From: Candidatus Hodarchaeota archaeon
GTDB lineage: Archaea; Asgardarchaeota; Heimdallarchaeia; Hodarchaeales; Hodarchaeaceae
NCBI GenBank assembly: GCA_029856365.1
Contig: JAHQWW010000016.1
Coordinates: 1 to 52,765 of the forward strand
DNA length: 52,765 bases
Reading direction: 5' to 3'
Below the pieces are notes generated by a model. That model was not told the origin of the DNA, did no database searches, and was given only the letters and a program-made list of their open reading frames with translations. Shown here piece after piece: positions 5,957 through 24,430 of the stretch (positions are counted from its first letter, which is position 1; the number at the start of each line of letters is the position of its first letter). A program made the position numbers and the translations under genes.

Positions 5957-8365
5957 TTAATTGGCCATCCGATTATAAAGCATGTCAGGCAGAGAGCTCC
6001 GCCAGGTTCTCCAGGCAATAAGAGTTGTTGCTAAAAACACACAAAGACAAATGATAACAGCAACAAAAGCCCATAATTCAACTGGAATTACTGAGGGAAG
6101 ATACAACTCTGGAAAAATAAATTCATAAGTGGGCTTTAATAAGGCGAAACTAATCGGAACACCAATGAAAAACCCAAAAAACCCATAAATTAAGTTCTCT
6201 GTGAAAATAATTCTTAAAATGGTTCTATGTTTCGCTCCCATTGCTCTTAACGCTAAGAATTCCATTTCACGCTCCATCATAGCAATTGACATTGATGAAA
6301 AGGTGAATAGAACCAAAGTGGCTAAACCCAGAAGAGCAACCAATACTAAAAGTTGCATAAACATGTTTAAAAATTCAAGAATTGTGCTTTTTGCCTCAGA
6401 ACTATCAAGATAGACGTAAGGATTGAATCTTTCTTGAATAAATTGTTTAATCTGATTTTTATCATCGTTTGATATAGTTTCACTAAATGTGAATGCAAAA
6501 GCTGTAACATTCTCCTTAATCCCAATATGATGAATATCAGAAACAGATTGTTGAATTGCTTCTATAGTCCATAAAATTGTATTTTCTGCTATTTCACCTG
6601 TGATTCCAGCTACTTCAACTGTTAAATTAGATTGTAAATTAAAACTGAAAGAAATCTGATCTCCCGGTTTTACCTCGAGATCATTTGCTAAATTATTGCC
6701 AATAAGGATTTCATATTTAGAGAGCAATTTCTCTCCCGCTATAACATTATAGTCTCTTAATGACGCATTTTGATGAAAAGCTTGTAGCGGAACTCGTTGA
6801 TTACCTATCCAAACTGATGTATACACAAATCCTTCTATTTCGGTTATTCCTGTAATAGTTTGATGAATCCACTGTTTGATCTCAGTTTCAGATGTTGGTG
6901 TTGATAAAATGACCTTAGCGTCATATTTCTCATACAATTCATAATTTTGATCTAAGGCATAGATGTAATCAAAAAATAAGCTGGCGGAAATAACTAAAAT
7001 CACCATAGATGCAGAAACGACTAATGCAGTCGATAGTGAGCGTCTTTTATTCATAAAAACCGACCTGAGAGGAATTTTAGAAGCTAGTCCTTTGAAAATC
7101 CTGAACGGACTCAATAATCGTTCTAAAAACGGCTCTCTCCCAAGTTCACTAGTAGAATATGGAGCCCTTAACGCTTCATGAGGAGTTATTTGTAACACGG
7201 GAAGCGTAGCCAATATTGAAAATATCAGTATTAGGAAAATTGCCAAGAGAGTAATAATAACGAAGTTTGAAGGATTAGATGATACAGTTATGACAACCAG
7301 ACCAAAAACACTTACAGCTACATTGATTAACACGAATGTTGTTAGTGTAGCGCCGATCCACCCGAGAATAATCCCAATTATACCAAGCATTAAACCTGAA
7401 CTGGTATAATGGACAAGAATAGCACGGTTTTTTGCACCTAATGCTCCATATAAACCAATGTGGGTTCGCTGGGCTATTATTAACTTGCTTAAGGAATTAT
7501 AAATTGCAATGGAGCCTACAATCAAAGCGAAAATGCCAAAGACGACTCCAATATTTTCCATTGCATCCGTTCGAAGCTCTAACCAACCTCGTTCCATTGA
7601 TTCATCCCAATAAATTACGTTTTGAATTCTATTCTCACCCAATAATGAAGAAAGAGCTTGATCTGCTTTCTGATTTGCAGCATTTGACCTTTCTTGAGTT
7701 TTAACAAGAATTTCATTTACTCCAGTTAGATTAAACTTTTGTTGAAGGATTTCAAGAGGTATATAGATAATACACAATTCTCCTAAAGTGATGGCATTTG
7801 TTTGTTCATCTACGACAAAAATATATTCAGAATCAGCAACAAATCCTGCAATTCTTACGTTAACAATAGAATTTCGAAAATTAATAGAAAGATGGTCGTT
7901 TAATTTAGCTTGAGCTCCAAGTGGGAGAATGTTACCAAAATGTTGTTCTACTAATACCTGATCATCAGAGATTGGATCATCCCCAACCCGCAATTTCAAT
8001 TTGTTAATCCTAGCATTATCAAAATTAATTCCGATTAAATAAGCTTTATGGATCTTATCCTTGTAATTGACTGTAGAATACTCAAATATCCGACCTTCTA
8101 GGTCAGTAATTCCTGCAGCTTCTTTCTCAGACTCAGATAAGAGTAATGACACATTATTTTCAGGGATGTAACCTGATAAACGAATTCTGAGGTCAGCATT
8201 ATTCAGTTGTTTATTTGTAGCTTCCACCGACACCATAGCAGAGTTTTTTAAATTTATCAATCCTAATCCCAAGGTAAGTGCAAGGAATACAGTTAAAATG
8301 ATCATAATAGAGCGGAATTTGTTGAATTGAATGTCTCTAAAGATCTTCATAGTTAAGATTTTCAA
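5957..8365 (-). CDS. FtsX/MacB-like ABC transporter permease (duplicated 2x architecture)
   Basis: Two repeats of TM + large extracellular domain + FtsX segment (QRTHIGLYGALGA; EREMEFLALRAMGA); follows a LolD-like ATPase. Confidence 0.88.
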   Translation of the reverse strand: MKILTMKIFRDIQFNKFRSIMIILTVFLALTLGLGLINLKNSAMVSVEATNKQLNNADLRIRLSGYIPENNVSLLLSESEKEAAGITDLEGRIFEYSTVNYKDKIHKAYLIGINFDNARINKLKLRVGDDPISDDQVLVEQHFGNILPLGAQAKLNDHLSINFRNSIVNVRIAGFVADSEYIFVVDEQTNAITLGELCIIYIPLEILQQKFNLTGVNEILVKTQERSNAANQKADQALSSLLGENRIQNVIYWDESMERGWLELRTDAMENIGVVFGIFALIVGSIAIYNSLSKLIIAQRTHIGLYGALGAKNRAILVHYTSSGLMLGIIGIILGWIGATLTTFVLINVAVSVFGLVVITVSSNPSNFVIITLLAIFLILIFSILATLPVLQITPHEALRAPYSTSELGREPFLERLLSPFRIFKGLASKIPLRSVFMNKRRSLSTALVVSASMVILVISASLFFDYIYALDQNYELYEKYDAKVILSTPTSETEIKQWIHQTITGITEIEGFVYTSVWIGNQRVPLQAFHQNASLRDYNVIAGEKLLSKYEILIGNNLANDLEVKPGDQISFSFNLQSNLTVEVAGITGEIAENTILWTIEAIQQSVSDIHHIGIKENVTAFAFTFSETISNDDKNQIKQFIQERFNPYVYLDSSEAKSTILEFLNMFMQLLVLVALLGLATLVLFTFSSMSIAMMEREMEFLALRAMGAKHRTILRIIFTENLIYGFFGFFIGVPISFALLKPTYEFIFPELYLPSVIPVELWAFVAVIICLCVFLATTLIAWRTWRSSLPDMLYNRMAN

Positions 8366-8389
8366 GATGGTTGCACCTTCCGCTTAGAT

Positions 8390-9088
8390 CTACTTTGAAT
8401 GATCTTCTACAGTTTCAATCTGTCCATCCCGAAGGTAGAACACCCGTTGAGCTTTTTCTGTGATATTGATATCATGAGAGACAACAAGATAGGTTCCGCC
8501 AAACTGTTCATTGAGATCCTTCATTAAATCAGCAATTTTTTCTCCTGTGACAAAATCAAGGTTTCCAGTGGGCTCGTCCGCAACGATAATTTCAGGATTC
8601 TTTACTAGTGCTCGGGCGATCGCAACTCGCTGTTGTTCTCCCCCTGATAATTGACTCGGAAAACGATCTGTTTTATCACCGAGACCCACGGCTTTTAACA
8701 TATCACAAGCACGGCTTTTAATGTTTTCTCGATCCCCCTTAAATTCAAGAGCCAATGCAACATTTTCCCAAGCGCGAAGAGAAGGAATGAGGTTAAAGAA
8801 TTGAAAAATCCACCCAACTCGGTTCCGTCGATAGTCTCCCAACTGTCCAGTTCCCCATTCAGTGATTTCTTCTCCCTTAACTTTGATAGTACCTTTTGTT
8901 GGGGAGTCAATTCCACCTATTTGGTTAAGTAAAGTTGTTTTTCCTGATCCTGATGGTCCAAGTACAACAATAAATTCACCTTCATATACTTCCATTGAAA
9001 CACCGCGCAAGGCATGAACTATATGATCACCTAAGGCGAAATCACGATGTACATCTGATAAAACTACCATCGGTTCTTTTAATGCCAT
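8390..9088 (-). CDS. LolD/MacB-type ABC ATP-binding protein
   Basis: GPSGSGKT, FQFFNL Q-loop, LSGGEQQRVAIARAL, ADEPTGNLD. Confidence 0.95.
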   Translation of the reverse strand: MALKEPMVVLSDVHRDFALGDHIVHALRGVSMEVYEGEFIVVLGPSGSGKTTLLNQIGGIDSPTKGTIKVKGEEITEWGTGQLGDYRRNRVGWIFQFFNLIPSLRAWENVALALEFKGDRENIKSRACDMLKAVGLGDKTDRFPSQLSGGEQQRVAIARALVKNPEIIVADEPTGNLDFVTGEKIADLMKDLNEQFGGTYLVVSHDINITEKAQRVFYLRDGQIETVEDHSK

Positions 9089-10322: not shown

Positions 10323-10577
10323 TTATTCAACTTTTCCAACTGCAAGCCGAATATCAGAGTCTTTTATGGTTTTTCGCCCCGAATGACCAGCAATTTCTAC
10401 TGCATATCGAGCAATTTCTAGGCCTTTGTTAGTGATGATTTCATTTAGACTTGCTATGGCATCAGCTGAAACACGGAAAGCTCCCGCATCTCTGATGAGT
10501 CTCTCAACACGAGCGCCTGCAAAACTTATTTTGCCTTTAGTTGCTGGCTTTGGTGCTGCTTTTTTCTTTTTTGCCAT
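10323..10577 (-). CDS. Archaeal histone (HMfB-like fold) with N-terminal lysine-rich tail
   Basis: RLIRDAGAFRVS...HSGRKTIKDSDI matches HMf hallmarks (AGA loop, RKT, His/Asp). Preceded by the 16-aa tail MAKKKKAAPKPATKGK. Confidence 0.95.
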   Translation of the reverse strand: MAKKKKAAPKPATKGKISFAGARVERLIRDAGAFRVSADAIASLNEIITNKGLEIARYAVEIAGHSGRKTIKDSDIRLAVGKVE

Positions 10578-10641
10578 TTTATATCACAATTTCTCTTTAT
10601 AGTAAGTCTTCAAATAGACTTAGAGATAAAGTCAATCATTC

Positions 10642-10649
10642 TTTATAAA
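10642..10649 (-). promoter_or_regulatory. Candidate TATA box for the histone gene
   Basis: TTTATAAA preceded on the minus strand by purine-rich GGATAAATG (BRE-like), about 65 bp upstream of the ATG. Confidence 0.45.
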
Positions 10650-10777
10650 CATTTATCCAGTAATAACACGAAAGAAGAATATCAAGAAAAATCAAAGTTC
10701 TATCGCGTAGATTATTTCTTTTTACTGTTTTCACATTGTAATCCTATAAGTATCTTTAAGTTAAACCTTTTTTTTCA

Positions 10778-12049
10778 TTAAAATGGTTCAAATGTAAAAG
10801 GGGATTCTTTAGTCCTAAAAAGATCATCTAGGTTGTCAAGATATGTTTTATCGGTTATTTGAACTAATCCATATTCGTAGAGTTTTTTAAGACTAATAGC
10901 TCCCATTACCAGACTAGAAAACCGTGCAATATCAATGGATATTTCTACATCATATTCTTCTCCAGCGGAAATCACTTTTGGCTTTCCTTTTTGAAAGTGG
11001 ATTATTAGCTGGACATTATTTTCAGGTAAGAATGTATCTATGATAGTGAGTTTTAGTTTAATGCTTTGGTTTCCAAAGTTATGATCAGACAGAAGAGTAA
11101 AGAATTTTAAAGTATCGATTAACCGATACATAATTCCTACTCCTTGGATATTGCTTTCTTGAAAGATATGGAAGATATTTTCATTGCCACGGCTTCGTGG
11201 TTCCTTCAAAAAATGATGAAAATAGTGATCATGAGTATTGTAAAGGATTCGATGGATTTGATCTTGTTGAGTGGCAAGAAATGTTAGAAGGCCTAAGAAT
11301 GCTTCTGGTGAATCATAAATGAATTCCATAATATGAATATTGTATTGAAGCCAGCTTCCCCCTTCTACTCTTTTCATACGAAACGCTAAATAACCCATTA
11401 ATATTTCATTTTCCCAATAACCAATGACTTTCATTCTAACAAGCATTTGTTTAAAGGCATCACTATCCTCTCCTCGTAAAATCGTACCATGTGTTGTTGT
11501 TACATATCTATTAAAGCATTCTGAGATGGCTTCAATATCATCCATTGATAAATAAGAGACATTCATTTTTGTGGTTTGTTGCAACGCTATTGGCTCAAAA
11601 CAGTATTGATTCATCTTATTTCCTAATCCATAGCCCATCTTTGTATAAAAATCGGGAGCAAATGGATATAGACATGTTAAACAGTACTCACGATCGTAAT
11701 AATGGTTGTGAGCAAATATCATTAGATCTTTGGCAACATGTTCTTTCTTATGAAGAAGATCAACACACATTTCCCCTATTCCACCACATTTAACCATATA
11801 TTTTGAAAATAAGTTCATCTCAAAATCATACAGAATCATCCCACCCAATAATTTGTCCTCTTGAAAACATCCATAAAAATTCACTATGGTATTTTCATTA
11901 TTAGTTTTAATCCAGTCTTCTTTTTTCTGTCTTTTCATATCTTCCGTAAAATTATCTGGTACCTGACCAGGATATGCTCCCGCCCAGATCGCAAGGAATG
12001 TGTCAAAATCTTTGTCCACTAGCTTTCTAACATTTCGATTCTCTTTCAT
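10778..12049 (-). CDS. eis: Eis-family GNAT acetyltransferase (tandem GNAT + SCP2-like C-terminal domain)
   Basis: About 420 aa; LYPFAPDFYTKMGY motif, MYRLIDT, SCP2-like SSLVMG..L...GLV, terminal Phe (EPF) as in Eis proteins. Confidence 0.85.
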   Translation of the reverse strand: MKENRNVRKLVDKDFDTFLAIWAGAYPGQVPDNFTEDMKRQKKEDWIKTNNENTIVNFYGCFQEDKLLGGMILYDFEMNLFSKYMVKCGGIGEMCVDLLHKKEHVAKDLMIFAHNHYYDREYCLTCLYPFAPDFYTKMGYGLGNKMNQYCFEPIALQQTTKMNVSYLSMDDIEAISECFNRYVTTTHGTILRGEDSDAFKQMLVRMKVIGYWENEILMGYLAFRMKRVEGGSWLQYNIHIMEFIYDSPEAFLGLLTFLATQQDQIHRILYNTHDHYFHHFLKEPRSRGNENIFHIFQESNIQGVGIMYRLIDTLKFFTLLSDHNFGNQSIKLKLTIIDTFLPENNVQLIIHFQKGKPKVISAGEEYDVEISIDIARFSSLVMGAISLKKLYEYGLVQITDKTYLDNLDDLFRTKESPFTFEPF

Positions 12050-12108
12050 CTCGATTTTCCAATCCTATAAATGAAATTATGATTTTTAAAAAGTATCACT
12101 TCAAAACA

Positions 12109-12708
12109 TTAAATAAAGCTAATTGCAATATTGTTATCTTTTTTCTCCGTTATCATAATGATAGGATAACTCAATGCTGCTGATAGAGTAATAGCAAGTG
12201 TATTCCTCGTTTGTTGCCTCTGGAAATGATGGACATGGCCAGCCACCAAAATTTTTGGTTGATACTGATCAACAAGCTTTCTTACTTTTTTATTACCACA
12301 GTGAGGAATCATTTTTGTGTGAAATGGATCACTACATTGATCTGCAAGGCCGAACGCTGGTTCATGAGAAACTAAAACATCAACATTCCTCGGAATGGAA
12401 ATAGGTTCACAAAGATAATCAATACCGAAGAAATGCAATCCAGTTAATTTATTGAGTCTGTTGAGATGGTTGTTTAACCAGAAAAAGTTATGGATCCTCT
12501 CGAGTTTATGGTGGAGTTTTTCTCTCCCCCAGGTTTCTTTGTTTCCTTTTATGCTAAAAAATGGTAAAGGGAATTCGAAATCATTCTGTTTAGGATATTG
12601 GTGATAATTAAAGATATCTCCACAACAAATACAAAGATCAACCGTCTCTGCGATCTGAAATAATCGGGTGAAATCTCCCTCAAAATCAGCACTAAGAAGG
12701 ATTTTCAT
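12109..12708 (-). CDS. Calcineurin-like metallophosphoesterase
   Basis: SADFEG, CGD, KGNKE, SHEP and GHVH motifs; start moved to MKILL. Confidence 0.8.
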   Translation of the reverse strand: MKILLSADFEGDFTRLFQIAETVDLCICCGDIFNYHQYPKQNDFEFPLPFFSIKGNKETWGREKLHHKLERIHNFFWLNNHLNRLNKLTGLHFFGIDYLCEPISIPRNVDVLVSHEPAFGLADQCSDPFHTKMIPHCGNKKVRKLVDQYQPKILVAGHVHHFQRQQTRNTLAITLSAALSYPIIMITEKKDNNIAISFI

Positions 12709-12888: not shown

Positions 12889-13641
12889 ATGCTAAAGGAA
12901 AAAGAAATTGTTTTGTTAAATTCAAATGTAAAAAGCTGTTTTAATTGCAACCTTTCTAAAACCAGAAACAATCCCATTTGTGGAGAAGGAAACTTAGATG
13001 CCAAAATCATGCTGATAGCACAGGCCCCAGGTGTTCAAGAAGATACTAAAGGAAAGATGTTTATTGGTCCTTCAGGTCAAATATTAAATGAACTACTGAA
13101 AGGAGCTAATTTAAACCGAGAAGATATCTACATGACCAACCTAATAAAATGTATGCTTCCAAAGTATCGGAAACCAAAAACAAAAGAAATTAAATCCTGT
13201 AGTCAATATCTAGATAGAGAGATTGAAATAATTAAACCTCAAATTTTAGTACCTTTAGGTTTCCATGCAATAAAATATATTTTTACGAAATATAATCAAA
13301 AACTTCCTTCAAAGGATGAGTATAATACAATCTTCGGAAATCTCTATTTAACTTCTAATAACAAATTTTTACCACTTCCTCATCCCGCAATCTTATTACA
13401 TAATCCATCTTATAAAGAGGAAGTAAAATATTATTACGATAAACTTAAAATCGTCTCAAAAGATTGTAAATGGTACAGAGTTTGCCCAATAAAATATTTT
13501 TATGAACAAGAGAAAATCCCAAGAATCTGGGTCGAGCTATATTGCAAAGGGGACTGGTCTAACTGTGTTAGGTTCCACATGGAAGAAGAGGGAAAGTATC
13601 ATTCTGATTATATGCTTCCAGATGGAACATTAATGGAATAA
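12889..13641 (+). CDS. udg: Family 4-type uracil-DNA glycosylase with extra Cys-rich C-terminal domain
   Basis: CxxC, GEG, AQAPG..E, FIGPSG, TNLIKC, HPA motifs; about 60-aa tail with 4 Cys ending MLPDG. Confidence 0.88.
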   Translation: MLKEKEIVLLNSNVKSCFNCNLSKTRNNPICGEGNLDAKIMLIAQAPGVQEDTKGKMFIGPSGQILNELLKGANLNREDIYMTNLIKCMLPKYRKPKTKEIKSCSQYLDREIEIIKPQILVPLGFHAIKYIFTKYNQKLPSKDEYNTIFGNLYLTSNNKFLPLPHPAILLHNPSYKEEVKYYYDKLKIVSKDCKWYRVCPIKYFYEQEKIPRIWVELYCKGDWSNCVRFHMEEEGKYHSDYMLPDGTLME

Positions 13642-13698
13642 TTATGATATTAGTAAAAAAAGGCAAGAGTTTACCTAAAAGAAGAGGGATTTTCATCA

Positions 13699-14679
13699 TT
13701 ATTTCCACAAATCAGTACTTAAATACTTCAAACCACTATCAGGTAGTAAAACGACAATAGTTTTCCCTTGTAAATCTCCTTTAAGTAGTTGAAGTGCTGC
13801 AGCAACATTCGCTCCTGATGAAAAGCCAGTAAAAATTCCTTCTTCTTGGGCTAACCGACGTGATGTTTCAATAGCCTCATCATTGGTAATCTGAAGATAT
13901 CCATCTATTTGGACTCCTTTTAGATACTTCAGATTAGCCATGGAGTATCCTCCTCCCTGGATTTTATGATTTGGGTTGTTAATTTTTCTCCCAGCCAGGA
14001 TAGCAGCTGTTTCTGGCTCTACAATGTAGCATTGTATCTTAGGATCATATTCCCTTAAAGCCTTCGATACTCCCGCAAAACTTCCCCCTGTCCCAACGAA
14101 GTCACAGAATGCGTCAACTTCCCCATCAGTTTGTTCAAGAATTTCTTTGCCTGTATTTAAATAATGTGCTCTCCAATTACCATCCAAGACAAATTGATCC
14201 GCCCGAAAAGCGTTCAATTGTGTTGTTAAGCGCATTGTCTCTTTTTCCACAACTTCCAAAGATTCTCCAGATACCTGTCCCGGGGGTGCGCCAGGAGCTT
14301 GGTCAACAAGGACAACTTTCGCTCCGAAGGCTCTCATCATTTGTGCTCTTTCTTCTGTATTACCTTTGCTCATCACTGCCACAAAAGGGTAACCTTTTAT
14401 AGCACAAACAATGGATAGCCCCGTTCCAGTATTTCCGCTGGTCAATTCTATAACGGTTTGACCTGGTTTTAATGATCCTGATTTTTCAGCATCTTCAATC
14501 ATTTGTAAACCAATTCTATCCTTTTTTGAATATCCTGGATTAAAATACTCTAGCTTAGCTAGTATACGTCCTTTAACTCCTGTATTATCTACTAATCTAG
14601 AGAGGTCTACTAGTGGTGTTTGCCCAATTGTTTCTATTATTGATTTACAAATCCCTTGACTATGTTTCAAATGCTTCAT
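13699..14679 (-). CDS. PLP-dependent cysteine synthase family protein
   Basis: IGQTPLV, KLEYFNPGYSKKDR (PLP Lys), TSGNTG, GTGGS, PDSGLKYLST. Confidence 0.9.
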   Translation of the reverse strand: MKHLKHSQGICKSIIETIGQTPLVDLSRLVDNTGVKGRILAKLEYFNPGYSKKDRIGLQMIEDAEKSGSLKPGQTVIELTSGNTGTGLSIVCAIKGYPFVAVMSKGNTEERAQMMRAFGAKVVLVDQAPGAPPGQVSGESLEVVEKETMRLTTQLNAFRADQFVLDGNWRAHYLNTGKEILEQTDGEVDAFCDFVGTGGSFAGVSKALREYDPKIQCYIVEPETAAILAGRKINNPNHKIQGGGYSMANLKYLKGVQIDGYLQITNDEAIETSRRLAQEEGIFTGFSSGANVAAALQLLKGDLQGKTIVVLLPDSGLKYLSTDLWK

Positions 14680-15531: not shown

Positions 15532-16233
15532 GTGAGAATAATGAGCGAACTAATTGTTGAAATTGATTCTCTTTCTAAGAATTATCAAAGTGGGGAGATT
15601 ACTGTCCGTGCTTTAAGTGGTGTGGATTTAAAAATTAAAAAGGGGGAATTTATAGTTATTCTTGGACCCAGTGGGTCTGGAAAAACCACACTACTTAATT
15701 TAATTGGTGGAATTGATGTACATACTAGTGGGTCAATTAGAGTCAATGCTAGAGAAATAACGAAGTTAAAGGAAAAAGAACTTACCGAATTTCGTAAAGA
15801 AGATGTTGGCTTTATATTTCAATTCTATAATTTAATTCCAACGCTTACAGCGATTGAGAACGTCGAATTAGCTGCTCGATTGAAATTCTCACGACGTATG
15901 GCTTATGAGCAATCCATGCGGATTTTAAAAACGGTTGAGATGGAGGATAAAGCCCATAAATTTCCTTCACAACTTTCAGGAGGAGAGCAGCAACGAGTTG
16001 CCATTGCACGAGCTCTTGTTAAAGAGCCAAAGATTGTCCTAGCAGATGAACCCACTGGGAATCTTGACACAGAAACAGGGGAGCGTATATTGAGTGAAAT
16101 GTTAAGGATTTGTAAAGAGAAGGGTACAACGTTTTTAATAGTTACCCATAATGTTGCAATTTCAAAACTCGCAGATTATATTATATATTTGAAAGACGGG
16201 CAAATTTTTGGTACCTCAAAAAATCAGTCATAG
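15532..16233 (+). CDS. LolD/MacB-type ABC ATP-binding protein
   Basis: GPSGSGKT, LSGGEQQRVAIARAL, ADEPTGNLD; start probably ATG 15541. Confidence 0.95.
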   Translation: MRIMSELIVEIDSLSKNYQSGEITVRALSGVDLKIKKGEFIVILGPSGSGKTTLLNLIGGIDVHTSGSIRVNAREITKLKEKELTEFRKEDVGFIFQFYNLIPTLTAIENVELAARLKFSRRMAYEQSMRILKTVEMEDKAHKFPSQLSGGEQQRVAIARALVKEPKIVLADEPTGNLDTETGERILSEMLRICKEKGTTFLIVTHNVAISKLADYIIYLKDGQIFGTSKNQS

Positions 16234-16247
16234 AATGAGGAGGGTCA

Positions 16248-18674
16248 TTGGTGTTATTCCTAAGAAAAATTGTACGAGATCTTTGGAAGAATAAGGCTCG
16301 ATCATTACCTATTATTATCCTGATAACAGTTAGTCAAACTGCTAGTATTCTCTATATTGAAGCAGGGGTATTAATGGATGTTAGCTGGCAAAAATATTTC
16401 CAAGAAGGAAATGTAGGAGATGTTTGGGTAGATACAGTTCCAATATCCCCATCTGTTTTTAATGAATCAATCATTTTCCAATGGGAAAATTTGTATTCAA
16501 TTACAGCAATTCAACCACGTTTATGCTTTAAAGGTCATGTTATGATACAAAATAAGAAAGTGCCAGTTGAAATTGTCTCTTTTCCTGAAAACAATTCAGA
16601 ATCAATCAACAGCATCATAACAAAAGATGGAACTTATTTTACAGATCATCATTCCAAACTCAATGGAGTATATATTGAACAATCATATTTAGAATTACAT
16701 AACCTTGAGGAAACGAAAGAAATTCCACTTAAGATTGATTTTGGAGCCGGATCAAAAGATTTGAATCTTACCTTATTAGGAGGAGCATTTAGTCCAGAAT
16801 ACCCCATGAAAGCGGGTGAGGGAGGATCTCAAACACAGTTTGAATTTTCAGCAACCTTTGCTCAATATTTGACGATGAGTATCTTCCTAAGAACGGATTA
16901 TCTACAAGAAGAGTTATATCAAGGTCAAGAGATTTATAACCAAATTTGTATTTCCCTTACTGACAGAAGTGAAATAGATTCTTTTATTCATTATCTACAG
17001 ACAGACGAATCACCTCTAAATCTATACACCATTGATGTGAGGAAATATCCCGCGTTAATCGAGGATATGGCTTTTCTCATGATTTGGGTCGGATTTGGAG
17101 TTGCTTTTTTCTTTCTAATTATTTCCATGTTTTTAACCTACACTGTGGTTAATCGCTTTATTGATGAACAGAAACCACAGATTGGAGTTATGAAATCATT
17201 AGGATATTCGAATAGATATCTTCTTACAAGAAATCTTTTTTATGGGATTATTTTAGGTTTTATAGGTTCTATTCTCGGGATTCTTATTGGAGGATGTATT
17301 GGGATATTTTTTGGAGATTTTGCACTAAGATCTTGGCTCTCAATCCCCTATATTGTGATTGTTTTACCAATCGAAGAGTCCCTCCTAATGTTGAGTATGA
17401 CAATAATAATTTCAACATTTTCATGTTATATCTCAGCTCGTAGAATCCTAAGAATTTCACCTCGAGCTGCTATTCAACCAGTCATTCATGAAAGAAATAT
17501 TACTACCTTTATTATAGAAGATATTTTTAAGAAAATATTACGATTTCGTTTATCTATACCCGCTAAATATTCCATTCGCAATGTTTTCATTAACCCCAAA
17601 CGAACTTTAACAACAATTATCTCATTACTCATGGCTGTTGCTCTTGTTGGAGGAGTGCTAACAATAGTTGCGAGTGTTTTCGAAGGGGGTTCTCTAATGT
17701 TTGAATCAGAAAATTGGGATGCTCAAATCACTCTTACATATGCTCAAGAATTTTCAGAAGTTGAATCCAACATTTTAACTCAATTTCCTAATCCTGAATC
17801 AATCACTCTAGAACCCATGCTAATTCATATAGCGTGGATAAAAGATCTAACTGACAATTCTTGGACAAAAATCACCTTTACTGCATTAGTTCCCAATCCT
17901 AGCTTAAAAATCTTTGACACAATCTCTACAGGTTTTTCAAGCGAAAATTCGGCAATAATTTCGCCAGATCTTGCTAAACAATTAGAACTTGAAGTTGGAG
18001 ATAGATATACATTACGTGGGTTAAATGGAACACTACAGGAAGTTGTTATCCAAAAAATTCTCGCGCAACATCATGTTTCAAGCTTCTATATCCCTATTTC
18101 GTTAGGAAATTATCTGTCATTTGGAAATAGCACAAATGAGATGGTAAATGGGGTTCTTCTTGCGGGACTGTCATCTGAAGATGAAATTAAACCATTGAGT
18201 AGAAATTATTCTATAATCTTAAAATCTGATCTAATAGAACAAACAGAATCTTGGCATATGACGATGAGTTCAATTCTATTTGTTATACTATTCCTAGTAT
18301 TAATTATCGCTGGGATGATTATCTATGCGATTATGTCTATTAGTATTGCTGAACGTAAGGATGATCTCACCATAATGCGATCAGTAGGTATCCAGAATCG
18401 GAATATTTACCTTTGGGGTTTACTTGAAGTCATAATTTACTCGCTATTGGCAAGTGTAGGATATTTCATTGGATTCTTTATATCGGTTTGGTACATGGAC
18501 ATTCTTCAACAGCTTATGCAACAACCGCAAGGAGTATTCAACCTATCATTTACTCACTATCTCTTGTCTTTGAGCTTTGGATTTGTTGCAGCAACATTAG
18601 GCCAATTCTTCGCATTACGTTATGTCCTAAAACAAAGAATAGCTACAGTTACAAAAGAAAAGATGTTTGGCTAG
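16248..18674 (+). CDS. FtsX/MacB-like ABC transporter permease
   Basis: Duplicated TM/extracellular/FtsX architecture (EQKPQIGVMKSLGY; ERKDDLTIMRSVG); GAGGAGG upstream of the TTG start. Confidence 0.88.
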   Translation: MVLFLRKIVRDLWKNKARSLPIIILITVSQTASILYIEAGVLMDVSWQKYFQEGNVGDVWVDTVPISPSVFNESIIFQWENLYSITAIQPRLCFKGHVMIQNKKVPVEIVSFPENNSESINSIITKDGTYFTDHHSKLNGVYIEQSYLELHNLEETKEIPLKIDFGAGSKDLNLTLLGGAFSPEYPMKAGEGGSQTQFEFSATFAQYLTMSIFLRTDYLQEELYQGQEIYNQICISLTDRSEIDSFIHYLQTDESPLNLYTIDVRKYPALIEDMAFLMIWVGFGVAFFFLIISMFLTYTVVNRFIDEQKPQIGVMKSLGYSNRYLLTRNLFYGIILGFIGSILGILIGGCIGIFFGDFALRSWLSIPYIVIVLPIEESLLMLSMTIIISTFSCYISARRILRISPRAAIQPVIHERNITTFIIEDIFKKILRFRLSIPAKYSIRNVFINPKRTLTTIISLLMAVALVGGVLTIVASVFEGGSLMFESENWDAQITLTYAQEFSEVESNILTQFPNPESITLEPMLIHIAWIKDLTDNSWTKITFTALVPNPSLKIFDTISTGFSSENSAIISPDLAKQLELEVGDRYTLRGLNGTLQEVVIQKILAQHHVSSFYIPISLGNYLSFGNSTNEMVNGVLLAGLSSEDEIKPLSRNYSIILKSDLIEQTESWHMTMSSILFVILFLVLIIAGMIIYAIMSISIAERKDDLTIMRSVGIQNRNIYLWGLLEVIIYSLLASVGYFIGFFISVWYMDILQQLMQQPQGVFNLSFTHYLLSLSFGFVAATLGQFFALRYVLKQRIATVTKEKMFG

Positions 18675-23884: not shown

Positions 23885-24430
23885 CTACAAACTCTTTTTC
23901 ATAATATAAGACATTTCAGTTTTTCCGATGACAGAAAAGTCGTACTCGTTATATATCGATTTAAATCCCGTATGGGGTATCACCTTGGGATCGTTTAACT
24001 TTTGATCAAGTGTTGGAATTGCATACAGAGTTTTAATTCCTTTTGACTGACATTCTTCTATTACTAGGGGTAAAATTGATTTTATCAATCCTCTCTGACG
24101 AAATCCCTGCTTAATGAAATAACATGAAATTATTTTTACATTATCAGACTCTTCTGGTTTTATCATGGATGTTAATACGTTTGAACATGTAGGATCAATA
24201 CATTGGCACCATCCAACAGGTTGATCATTATGGTAATATATGTAACCATCAGAACAAATCTTAACAAATTCACTACGCCATTCTTTTGAATCCTCAGCAC
24301 TTATATTTTCCCAATCAATATCTTCACGTATAAAGCAGGTACACTGATATGGTTCCCATTCATCATTGACAAACAAACTCTGGAAATCGGTCGTAGTAAA
24401 CTCTGTTAATGGTTTTACATAGTCGCTCAT
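23885..24430 (-). CDS. GNAT family N-acetyltransferase
   Basis: PVGWCQ, ISCYFI...RQRGL acetyl-CoA motif, LYAIP. Confidence 0.75.
   Translation of the reverse strand: MSDYVKPLTEFTTTDFQSLFVNDEWEPYQCTCFIREDIDWENISAEDSKEWRSEFVKICSDGYIYYHNDQPVGWCQCIDPTCSNVLTSMIKPEESDNVKIISCYFIKQGFRQRGLIKSILPLVIEECQSKGIKTLYAIPTLDQKLNDPKVIPHTGFKSIYNEYDFSVIGKTEMSYIMKKSL

Follow-up and report, generated by a model that had tools for sequence, protein, structure and literature searches.

An Eis-type acetyltransferase gene beside a long-tailed histone gene in Hodarchaeales: a candidate writer–substrate neighbourhood

Eis of Mycobacterium tuberculosis acts on lysine side chains of the nucleoid protein HU (HupB/MtHU). 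Reviews describe acetylation of several HU lysines with decompaction of the nucleoid (PMC6363676); the enzyme acetylates peptides as well as HU (PMC6363676, PMC4964394), and Eis of M. smegmatis carries out exo-type peptide acylation (PMC4964394). Here we examine an Eis-type acetyltransferase gene that adjoins the gene for a long-tailed histone on contig JAHQWW010000016.1 of the Candidatus Hodarchaeota archaeon assembly GCA_029856365.1, the whole contig (52,765 nucleotides) being referred to below as the window. It is contig C142 of a 4.24-Mb metagenome-assembled genome, G000, which is 84% complete and belongs to the Hodarchaeales, an order of Asgard archaea that is among the closest known archaeal relatives of eukaryotes. 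The mycobacterial and archaeal enzymes have in common the three-domain Eis fold (two GNAT domains followed by an SCP2-like domain) and probably also a conserved tyrosine in the motif P-F-x-x-x-F-Y-x-x-x-G-Y and a C-terminal phenylalanine, while HU, like the histone, is an abundant DNA-wrapping protein with a disordered extension rich in lysine, alanine and proline. They differ in that HU carries this extension at its C-terminus, whereas the candidate substrate here is an N-terminal tail; moreover, we know of no linkage between eis and hupB in mycobacteria, whereas the eis and histone genes are adjacent here.

The closest archaeal system is that of Lokiarchaeum, in which LoHAT2 acetylates the tail of the Loki histone in vitro (bioRxiv 10.64898/2026.07.02.735847). 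LoHAT2 and the HLoB tails resemble the pair proposed here in that an enzyme of the GNAT superfamily, without any Gcn5/MYST complex, would act on an Asgard histone through its lysine-rich N-terminal tail. However, LoHAT2 is a small GNAT of the RimJ/RimL type (PF13302) that was found by AlphaFold screening rather than from gene order, and it comes from another Asgard class, in which the tail evolved independently. Tailed histones of Hodarchaeales are also already known (PMC10919886; bioRxiv 10.1101/2025.05.24.653377). GNAT writers of Asgard tails independent of Gcn5/MYST are thus known from LoHAT2, and what is new is an Eis-type candidate writer and its genomic pairing with a histone; the text of the LoHAT2 preprint and its accessible supplements mention neither Eis-type enzymes nor gene order, and a full-text literature search for Eis together with archaeal histones returned nothing relevant. 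For the gene order itself there is a bacterial counterpart in acuA-acsA of Bacillus subtilis, where the gene for a GNAT neighbours that for its protein substrate and the two have separate promoters. These genes are divergent, as are a 296-aa GNAT gene and the histone gene in five of the genomes described below (G002, G003, G013, G018 and G020), but there acetylation targets a single active-site lysine of a metabolic enzyme and not a chromatin protein.

Gene order around the long-tailed histone

The window was compared with 21 congeners and 61 other genomes of the class, and with metagenome contigs besides. Orthologs of the Eis-type enzyme (42–83% identity) are present in 15 of the 21 congeners and, within the class, are confined to this genus; the long-tailed histone occurs as one copy per genome, also in 15 of the 21 congeners, and in none of the 61 other genomes (E ≤ 1e-26). 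Adjacency of the two genes is retained in eight congeneric genomes and five metagenome contigs, in three arrangements. A co-oriented histone gene directly follows Eis in G007, G008, G009, G011, G014 and G017 (spacer 88–434 bp), to which a metagenome contig adds another locus of this core type (L176). In G019 the histone lies 1 kb after Eis with a zinc-ribbon open reading frame (ORF) between them, and two metagenome loci (L178, L179) are of the same type. Finally, the Eis of L181/L182 is only 42% identical and belongs to a separate branch of the tree, and 144 bp downstream of it lies a convergent gene for a long-tailed histone. In the Eis tree the co-oriented linked cases form one clade and the convergent case falls outside it, so that either the linkage is older and has been lost repeatedly or it originated a second time. 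The distant Eis paralogs of the class (L029–L042) and the two other Eis-like genes of G000 have no histone within 1.5 kb.

Some of these loci have additional genes. The ORF between Eis and histone, found in G019-type loci only, encodes about 110 aa with a C-terminal zinc ribbon (L079:2414-2746, L178:6385-6726). In G008 (L074:1496-3265), genes for a 279-aa GNAT (PF13508 + PF18014) and a protein of the acyl-CoA:6-aminopenicillanic acid acyltransferase family (PF03417) lie directly upstream of Eis and make up a small acyltransferase cluster adjoining the histone.

As a null expectation for synteny, 37 kb of the window were compared as DNA with five congeners. In G019 every detectable window gene lies on a different contig or at a different place, mostly in contig interiors; about ten consecutive gene pairs have all been dispersed, and Eis and histone stay together despite this. 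All genes flanking the pair in G008 and G019 differ from those of the window. Eis–histone is the most persistent adjacency in the block (8 of the 10 genomes of the clade), compared to 6 of 10 for Eis and the metallophosphoesterase (MPE) gene upstream of it. A CitMHS transporter gene near the histone in several loci was considered as residual synteny and rejected, its copies being paralogs only 27–30% identical.

The same histone has a different acetyltransferase as its neighbour in a sister subclade. The long-tailed histone of G002, G003, G013, G018 and G020 has no Eis nearby, and its divergent neighbour, 370–480 bp away, encodes a 296-aa GNAT (L136:1109-1996, on contig C36 of G002; also L137, L138, L140 and L141), which has C-terminal matches to PF08445, PF00583 and PF12746 and is unrelated to Eis, while its N-terminal 150 residues match no Pfam family. 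Eight other congeners have an ortholog of this GNAT, in each case away from all histone genes; thus its pairing with the histone is a separate adjacency specific to one clade. A third, small GNAT gene lies 1.4 kb from the histone in G021, but it is followed by a gene for an AMP-binding enzyme with which it may belong, and therefore counts weakly.

The other histone genes of the genus provide a control, for which the hypothesis was fixed before the test and profiles were built from 47 G000 matches (GNAT) and 66 homologues (Eis). Of 15 genomes whose long-tailed histone loci were scanned, 14 have a GNAT or Eis gene no more than 1.4 kb from this histone. Untailed and short-tailed paralogs, scanned over 3 kb on either side in 16 genomes of the genus, have one at a single locus of 49 (52 genes). 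This one case is on contig C64 of G000 (13365-14109; L007:1477-2248), where a gene for a 145-aa GNAT comes about 120 bp after that of an untailed histone; this pair was rejected as a chance adjacency, since no histone lies within 1.5 kb of any of the 10 orthologs of the GNAT in relatives. Counted as independent events, the long-tailed loci amount to only two to four gains against one context without any GNAT (G010), which at a per-locus chance of 2–7% corresponds to a rough p of 0.0005–0.015. The counts for G000 are about 11 genes for histones and about 47 for PF00583-type GNATs, besides three Eis-like paralogs; some 0.25 GNAT–histone adjacencies are therefore expected by chance in this single genome. 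The original prediction allowed that the adjacency may be chance, and for one genome this is fair; across relatives, however, the pair persists amid loss of synteny and recurs with a non-orthologous GNAT partner, and the adjacency is beyond chance.

These neighbourhoods suggest that the Eis-type enzyme may be a writer of histone-tail acetylation, with the lysine-, alanine- and proline-rich tail as its substrate. We regard this as the likeliest reading, though an evenly balanced one, partly supported by gene order. More tentatively, the long-tailed histone may form a genomic writer–substrate pair with interchangeable GNATs, Eis-type in one subclade and the unrelated 296-aa enzyme in the other.

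The histone and the Eis-type enzyme

The histone of the window scores 85 bits against NCBIfam NF043032 (cut-off 50) and 48 bits (1e-12) against PF00808. Its tail consists of 17 residues after the initiator methionine, seven of them lysine and the remainder mostly alanine and proline, and this lysine-rich extension precedes helix 1 of an archaeal, HMf-type histone fold; as there is no alternative in-frame start, the tail is translated. In orthologs the tails range from 13 to 33 residues and all begin M-[AP]-K-K-K, the sole tail feature conserved across all long-tailed orthologs. A second kind of tailed histone, which is a separate paralog present in some congeners (L072, G014:C306; P0023, P0026), starts with MEEY and has an N-terminal extension that is first acidic and then arginine-rich.

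The neighbouring enzyme has the complete Eis architecture, with an N-terminal GNAT domain (PF13527, residues 7–142, 9e-24), a central GNAT domain (PF17668, residues 208–285, 4e-9) and a C-terminal SCP2-like domain (PF13530, residues 325–418, 9e-15), all above cut-off. An AlphaFold2 model (42 homologues; pLDDT, the per-residue confidence score, 90.4 and predicted TM-score 0.88) superposes over its full length on solved structures of the family. The top Foldseek matches of the model are all hexameric proteins of the Eis family (TM 0.74–0.81, E down to 1e-29), among them 3N7Z of B. anthracis, 2I00 and 2HV2 of E. faecalis, 2OZG, Eis2 of M. abscessus (6RFT, 9MVA) and Eis of M. tuberculosis (3RYO, 4JD6 and 6B0U, the last with a lysine peptide), and a profile search of PDB sequences returns the same set.

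All 42 homologues share Tyr135, in the motif P-F-x-x-D-F-Y-x-K-M-G-Y, and it aligns with the F-Y of 3N7Z; judged by this motif it is probably equivalent to Y126 of M. tuberculosis Eis, which has a general-acid role (PMC4964394). The C-terminal phenylalanine (Phe423) is shared by 65 of 66 homologues and paralogs. Solved Eis enzymes suggest by analogy that the protein would assemble as a hexamer, with its N-terminal GNAT domain active, Tyr135 as general acid and the carboxylate of Phe423 as remote base. The Eis-like protein is predicted to be a catalytically active, acetyl-CoA-dependent N-acetyltransferase of the Eis family. It is a distant member of that family and not an Eis ortholog, since it scores far below the cut-offs of the NCBIfam equivalogs (15 bits against 576 for NF002368; 41 against 259 for the best subfamily, PRK01346); its identity to mycobacterial Eis is 13–16%.

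In a tree of 66 homologues the archaeal Eis sequences form one clade (SH-aLRT branch support 99–100) that is nested among bacterial sequences, which argues that they are a bacterial import. The bacterial neighbours are from Chloroflexota, Bacillota, Zixibacteria and WOR-3, and are of similar divergence.

Transcription units and alternative readings

The original prediction described MPE, an Eis-like GNAT and a tailed histone as co-oriented, with 200 bp between the last two, and both points are exact (Table 1). It also cautioned that the histone seemed to have its own TATA box. This is borne out: the box, TTTATAAAG at 10641-10649, precedes the histone ATG by about 70 nt and is conserved in eight linked loci, a TATA motif being found about 65–75 nt before the ATG in 8/8 linked genomic loci with spacers of 88–997 bp and also in the metagenome locus L181. 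A Shine-Dalgarno (SD) sequence, GTGAT at 10583-10587, lies 6–10 nt upstream of the ATG, and an SD sequence is likewise conserved in the eight linked relatives. A similar TATA box, long leader and SD sequence are found in 4–5 of 7 upstream regions inspected for other histone paralogs of G000. With its own conserved TATA box and SD sequence in the spacer the histone gene is probably an independent transcription unit, and the convergent and divergent arrangements exclude a shared transcript in those genomes. The MPE coding region stops 20–35 nt before the Eis ATG in relatives, with no evident TATA box between, and since the two genes of the core clade are 20–59 bp apart without an evident promoter they probably share one transcript. 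On these sequence features the locus is probably two transcription units, a probable MPE–Eis bicistron and a histone gene with its own promoter.

Table 1. Coordinates of the histone, Eis and MPE genes and their spacers in the window
Feature	Position	Strand	Details
Long-tailed archaeal histone, 84 aa	10323..10577	-	NF043032, PF00808
Eis–histone spacer, exactly 200 bp	10578..10777	-	T5 run 10684-10693, TATA box, SD
Eis-type three-domain N-acetyltransferase, 423 aa	10778..12049	-	PF13527 + PF17668 + PF13530
MPE–Eis spacer, 59 bp	12050..12108	-	conserved AGGATTGGAAAAT just upstream of Eis ATG
Calcineurin-like metallophosphoesterase (MPE)	12109..12708, ORF to 12741	-	PF00149 5e-8; start probably ATG at 12708, because relatives align from about residue 10-12

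A number of observations weigh against tail acetylation as the role of the enzyme. Eis and histone are not co-transcribed, an operon being excluded as far as sequence can tell. The Eis tree needs only one or two origins of the adjacency, thus most of the linked genomes are not independent, and the independent events are few (two to four gains, versus one context without any GNAT, G010). Linkage is also incomplete within the genus: Eis and histone are both present and unlinked in G002, G003, G018 and G020; G012 has Eis with MPE nearby and no adjacent histone; the gene after Eis in G021 encodes a radical-SAM protein, and the histone is found on a different contig, at its start; the linkage is missing from G001 and G016 as well; and G013 has no Eis ortholog. 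G010 (87% complete) retains the histone but lacks an Eis ortholog as well as any GNAT gene less than 7 kb from the histone, which directly follows the ArsR-like gene that precedes MPE–Eis in the core clade. The ancestral substrate of Eis was presumably something else, since its nearest relatives are in histone-less bacteria; Eis enzymes are promiscuous; and the net charge and pI of Eis show no trend between linked and unlinked orthologs, hence no adaptation in overall charge. Proteomics of the cultured Hodarchaeales species HC1, the sole source of in vivo data for the order, detected abundant tail methylation and essentially no acetylation, and tail acetylation was seen only once in the same study, in a Lokiarchaeon (bioRxiv 10.64898/2026.07.02.735847). 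HC1 is of a different genus, its tailed histone is of a different lineage from the long-tailed histone here, and the tail peptide of its HMpB.1, back-translated, has no match in 24 genomes of the order.

Several of these points would be expected if the adjacency were neutral, such that an ancestor received a bacterial Eis gene, later joined by MPE, beside its tailed-histone gene and passed the arrangement on to its descendants. The substrates of the enzyme would then be other proteins or small amines such as polyamines and aminoglycoside-like antibiotics, with no part for the histone. We consider this possible though rather doubtful. It agrees with the separate promoters, with the sufficiency of one or two origins, with the bacterial descent of a gene that has homologues in many histone-less bacteria, with the loss or unlinking of Eis in G010, G012, G021 and group B, and with the near absence of detected tail acetylation in vivo in another Hodarchaeales species; furthermore, some 47 GNATs per genome make chance neighbours common, as the C64 pair in G000 itself illustrates. 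However, it does not readily explain why the pair survives where about ten other consecutive pairs have dispersed, why it is found in three different arrangements, why in the sister subclade the neighbour of this histone is again a GNAT, though an unrelated one, or the contrast of 14/15 with 1/49 between this histone and its paralogs.

It is quite unlikely that MPE is instead the working partner of Eis, the two forming an operon whose substrate would be a small phosphorylated or aminated molecule, with the histone as bystander: the short, apparently promoterless gap recurs in six genomes, MPE lies directly upstream of Eis in six genomes and one metagenome contig and again near it on the opposite strand in L080 and L178, but it is absent from the G008, G019, L179 and L181 loci, all of which retain the histone, and its adjacency to Eis is less persistent than that of the histone. 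MPE was also rejected as an ancestral partner of Eis, since no bacterial or other archaeal homologue of Eis has it as a neighbour. Where it is present, MPE pairs with Eis and not with the histone.

The writer–substrate locus originally proposed therefore stands in part. In its favour are the conserved linkage in a subclade, the unrelated GNAT in the sister subclade and the complete Eis fold, and against it the genes are not co-transcribed and MPE pairs with Eis. The prediction was to be judged by synteny and co-occurrence across relatives, and there the linkage is conserved but not universal (G002/G003/G018/G020, G010).

The surroundings of the locus include two paralogous ABC modules of the MacB/FtsX type (ATPase and permease), which are inverted relative to each other (5957-9088 on the minus strand, ~15532-18497 on the plus strand) and bracket a 6.4-kb segment containing orf279, histone, Eis, MPE, a uracil-DNA glycosylase gene, cysK and an ArsR-like gene. 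Inverted modules of this kind could drive local inversions; in G010, one MacB/FtsX-type module directly adjoins the histone. The glycosylase gene (12889-13641, plus strand; PF03167 superfamily) is divergent from MPE, encodes a cysteine-rich C-terminal extension of about 60 residues, and is found in some relatives only. A further PF00583 GNAT match (24017-24280, minus strand, in a 182-aa ORF) lies about 13 kb from the histone.

Elsewhere in G000, three Sir2 and three histone deacetylase (HDAC) genes are candidates by sequence for potential erasers. A divergent histone paralog with a long N-terminal extension (C36:85620-85808; L002) has an HDAC-type gene (C36:81772-82629; PF00850, 239 bits) about 3 kb upstream of it. 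On contig C102 a GNAT gene (64063-64296) and a Sir2-type deacetylase gene (65127-65660) are about 1 kb apart and may be a writer–eraser pair.

Proposed mechanism and implications

If the Eis-type enzyme, whose clade entered this Hodarchaeales genus from bacteria, does acetylate the histone tail, it would neutralise the charge of tail lysines and so loosen contacts between tail and DNA, as mycobacterial Eis does with the Lys/Ala/Pro-rich HU. The gene pair is retained together as a neighbourhood and not as an operon. Both the histone as substrate and the effect on chromatin are predictions of this scheme.

The gene-order signal addresses the question of whether the tailed histones of Hodarchaeales are regulated by modification. 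The LoHAT2 preprint offers no genomic criterion for choosing writers among the approximately 50–60 GNATs of each genome, whereas gene order names two candidates, the Eis-type enzyme and the 296-aa GNAT, for one histone paralog. As natural controls are available alongside these candidates (congeners without the enzyme, untailed paralogs), the proposal can be tested directly with recombinant proteins. If it is correct, a bacterial mechanism of nucleoid-protein acetylation would have been reused on an archaeal histone tail. On the more tentative reading with interchangeable GNATs, tail acetylation in Asgard archaea would depend on prokaryotic GNATs that have been recruited, can replace one another and stay next to the histone in the genome. 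The neighbourhood would then be the first case in archaea of a histone-modification system with a signature in gene order.

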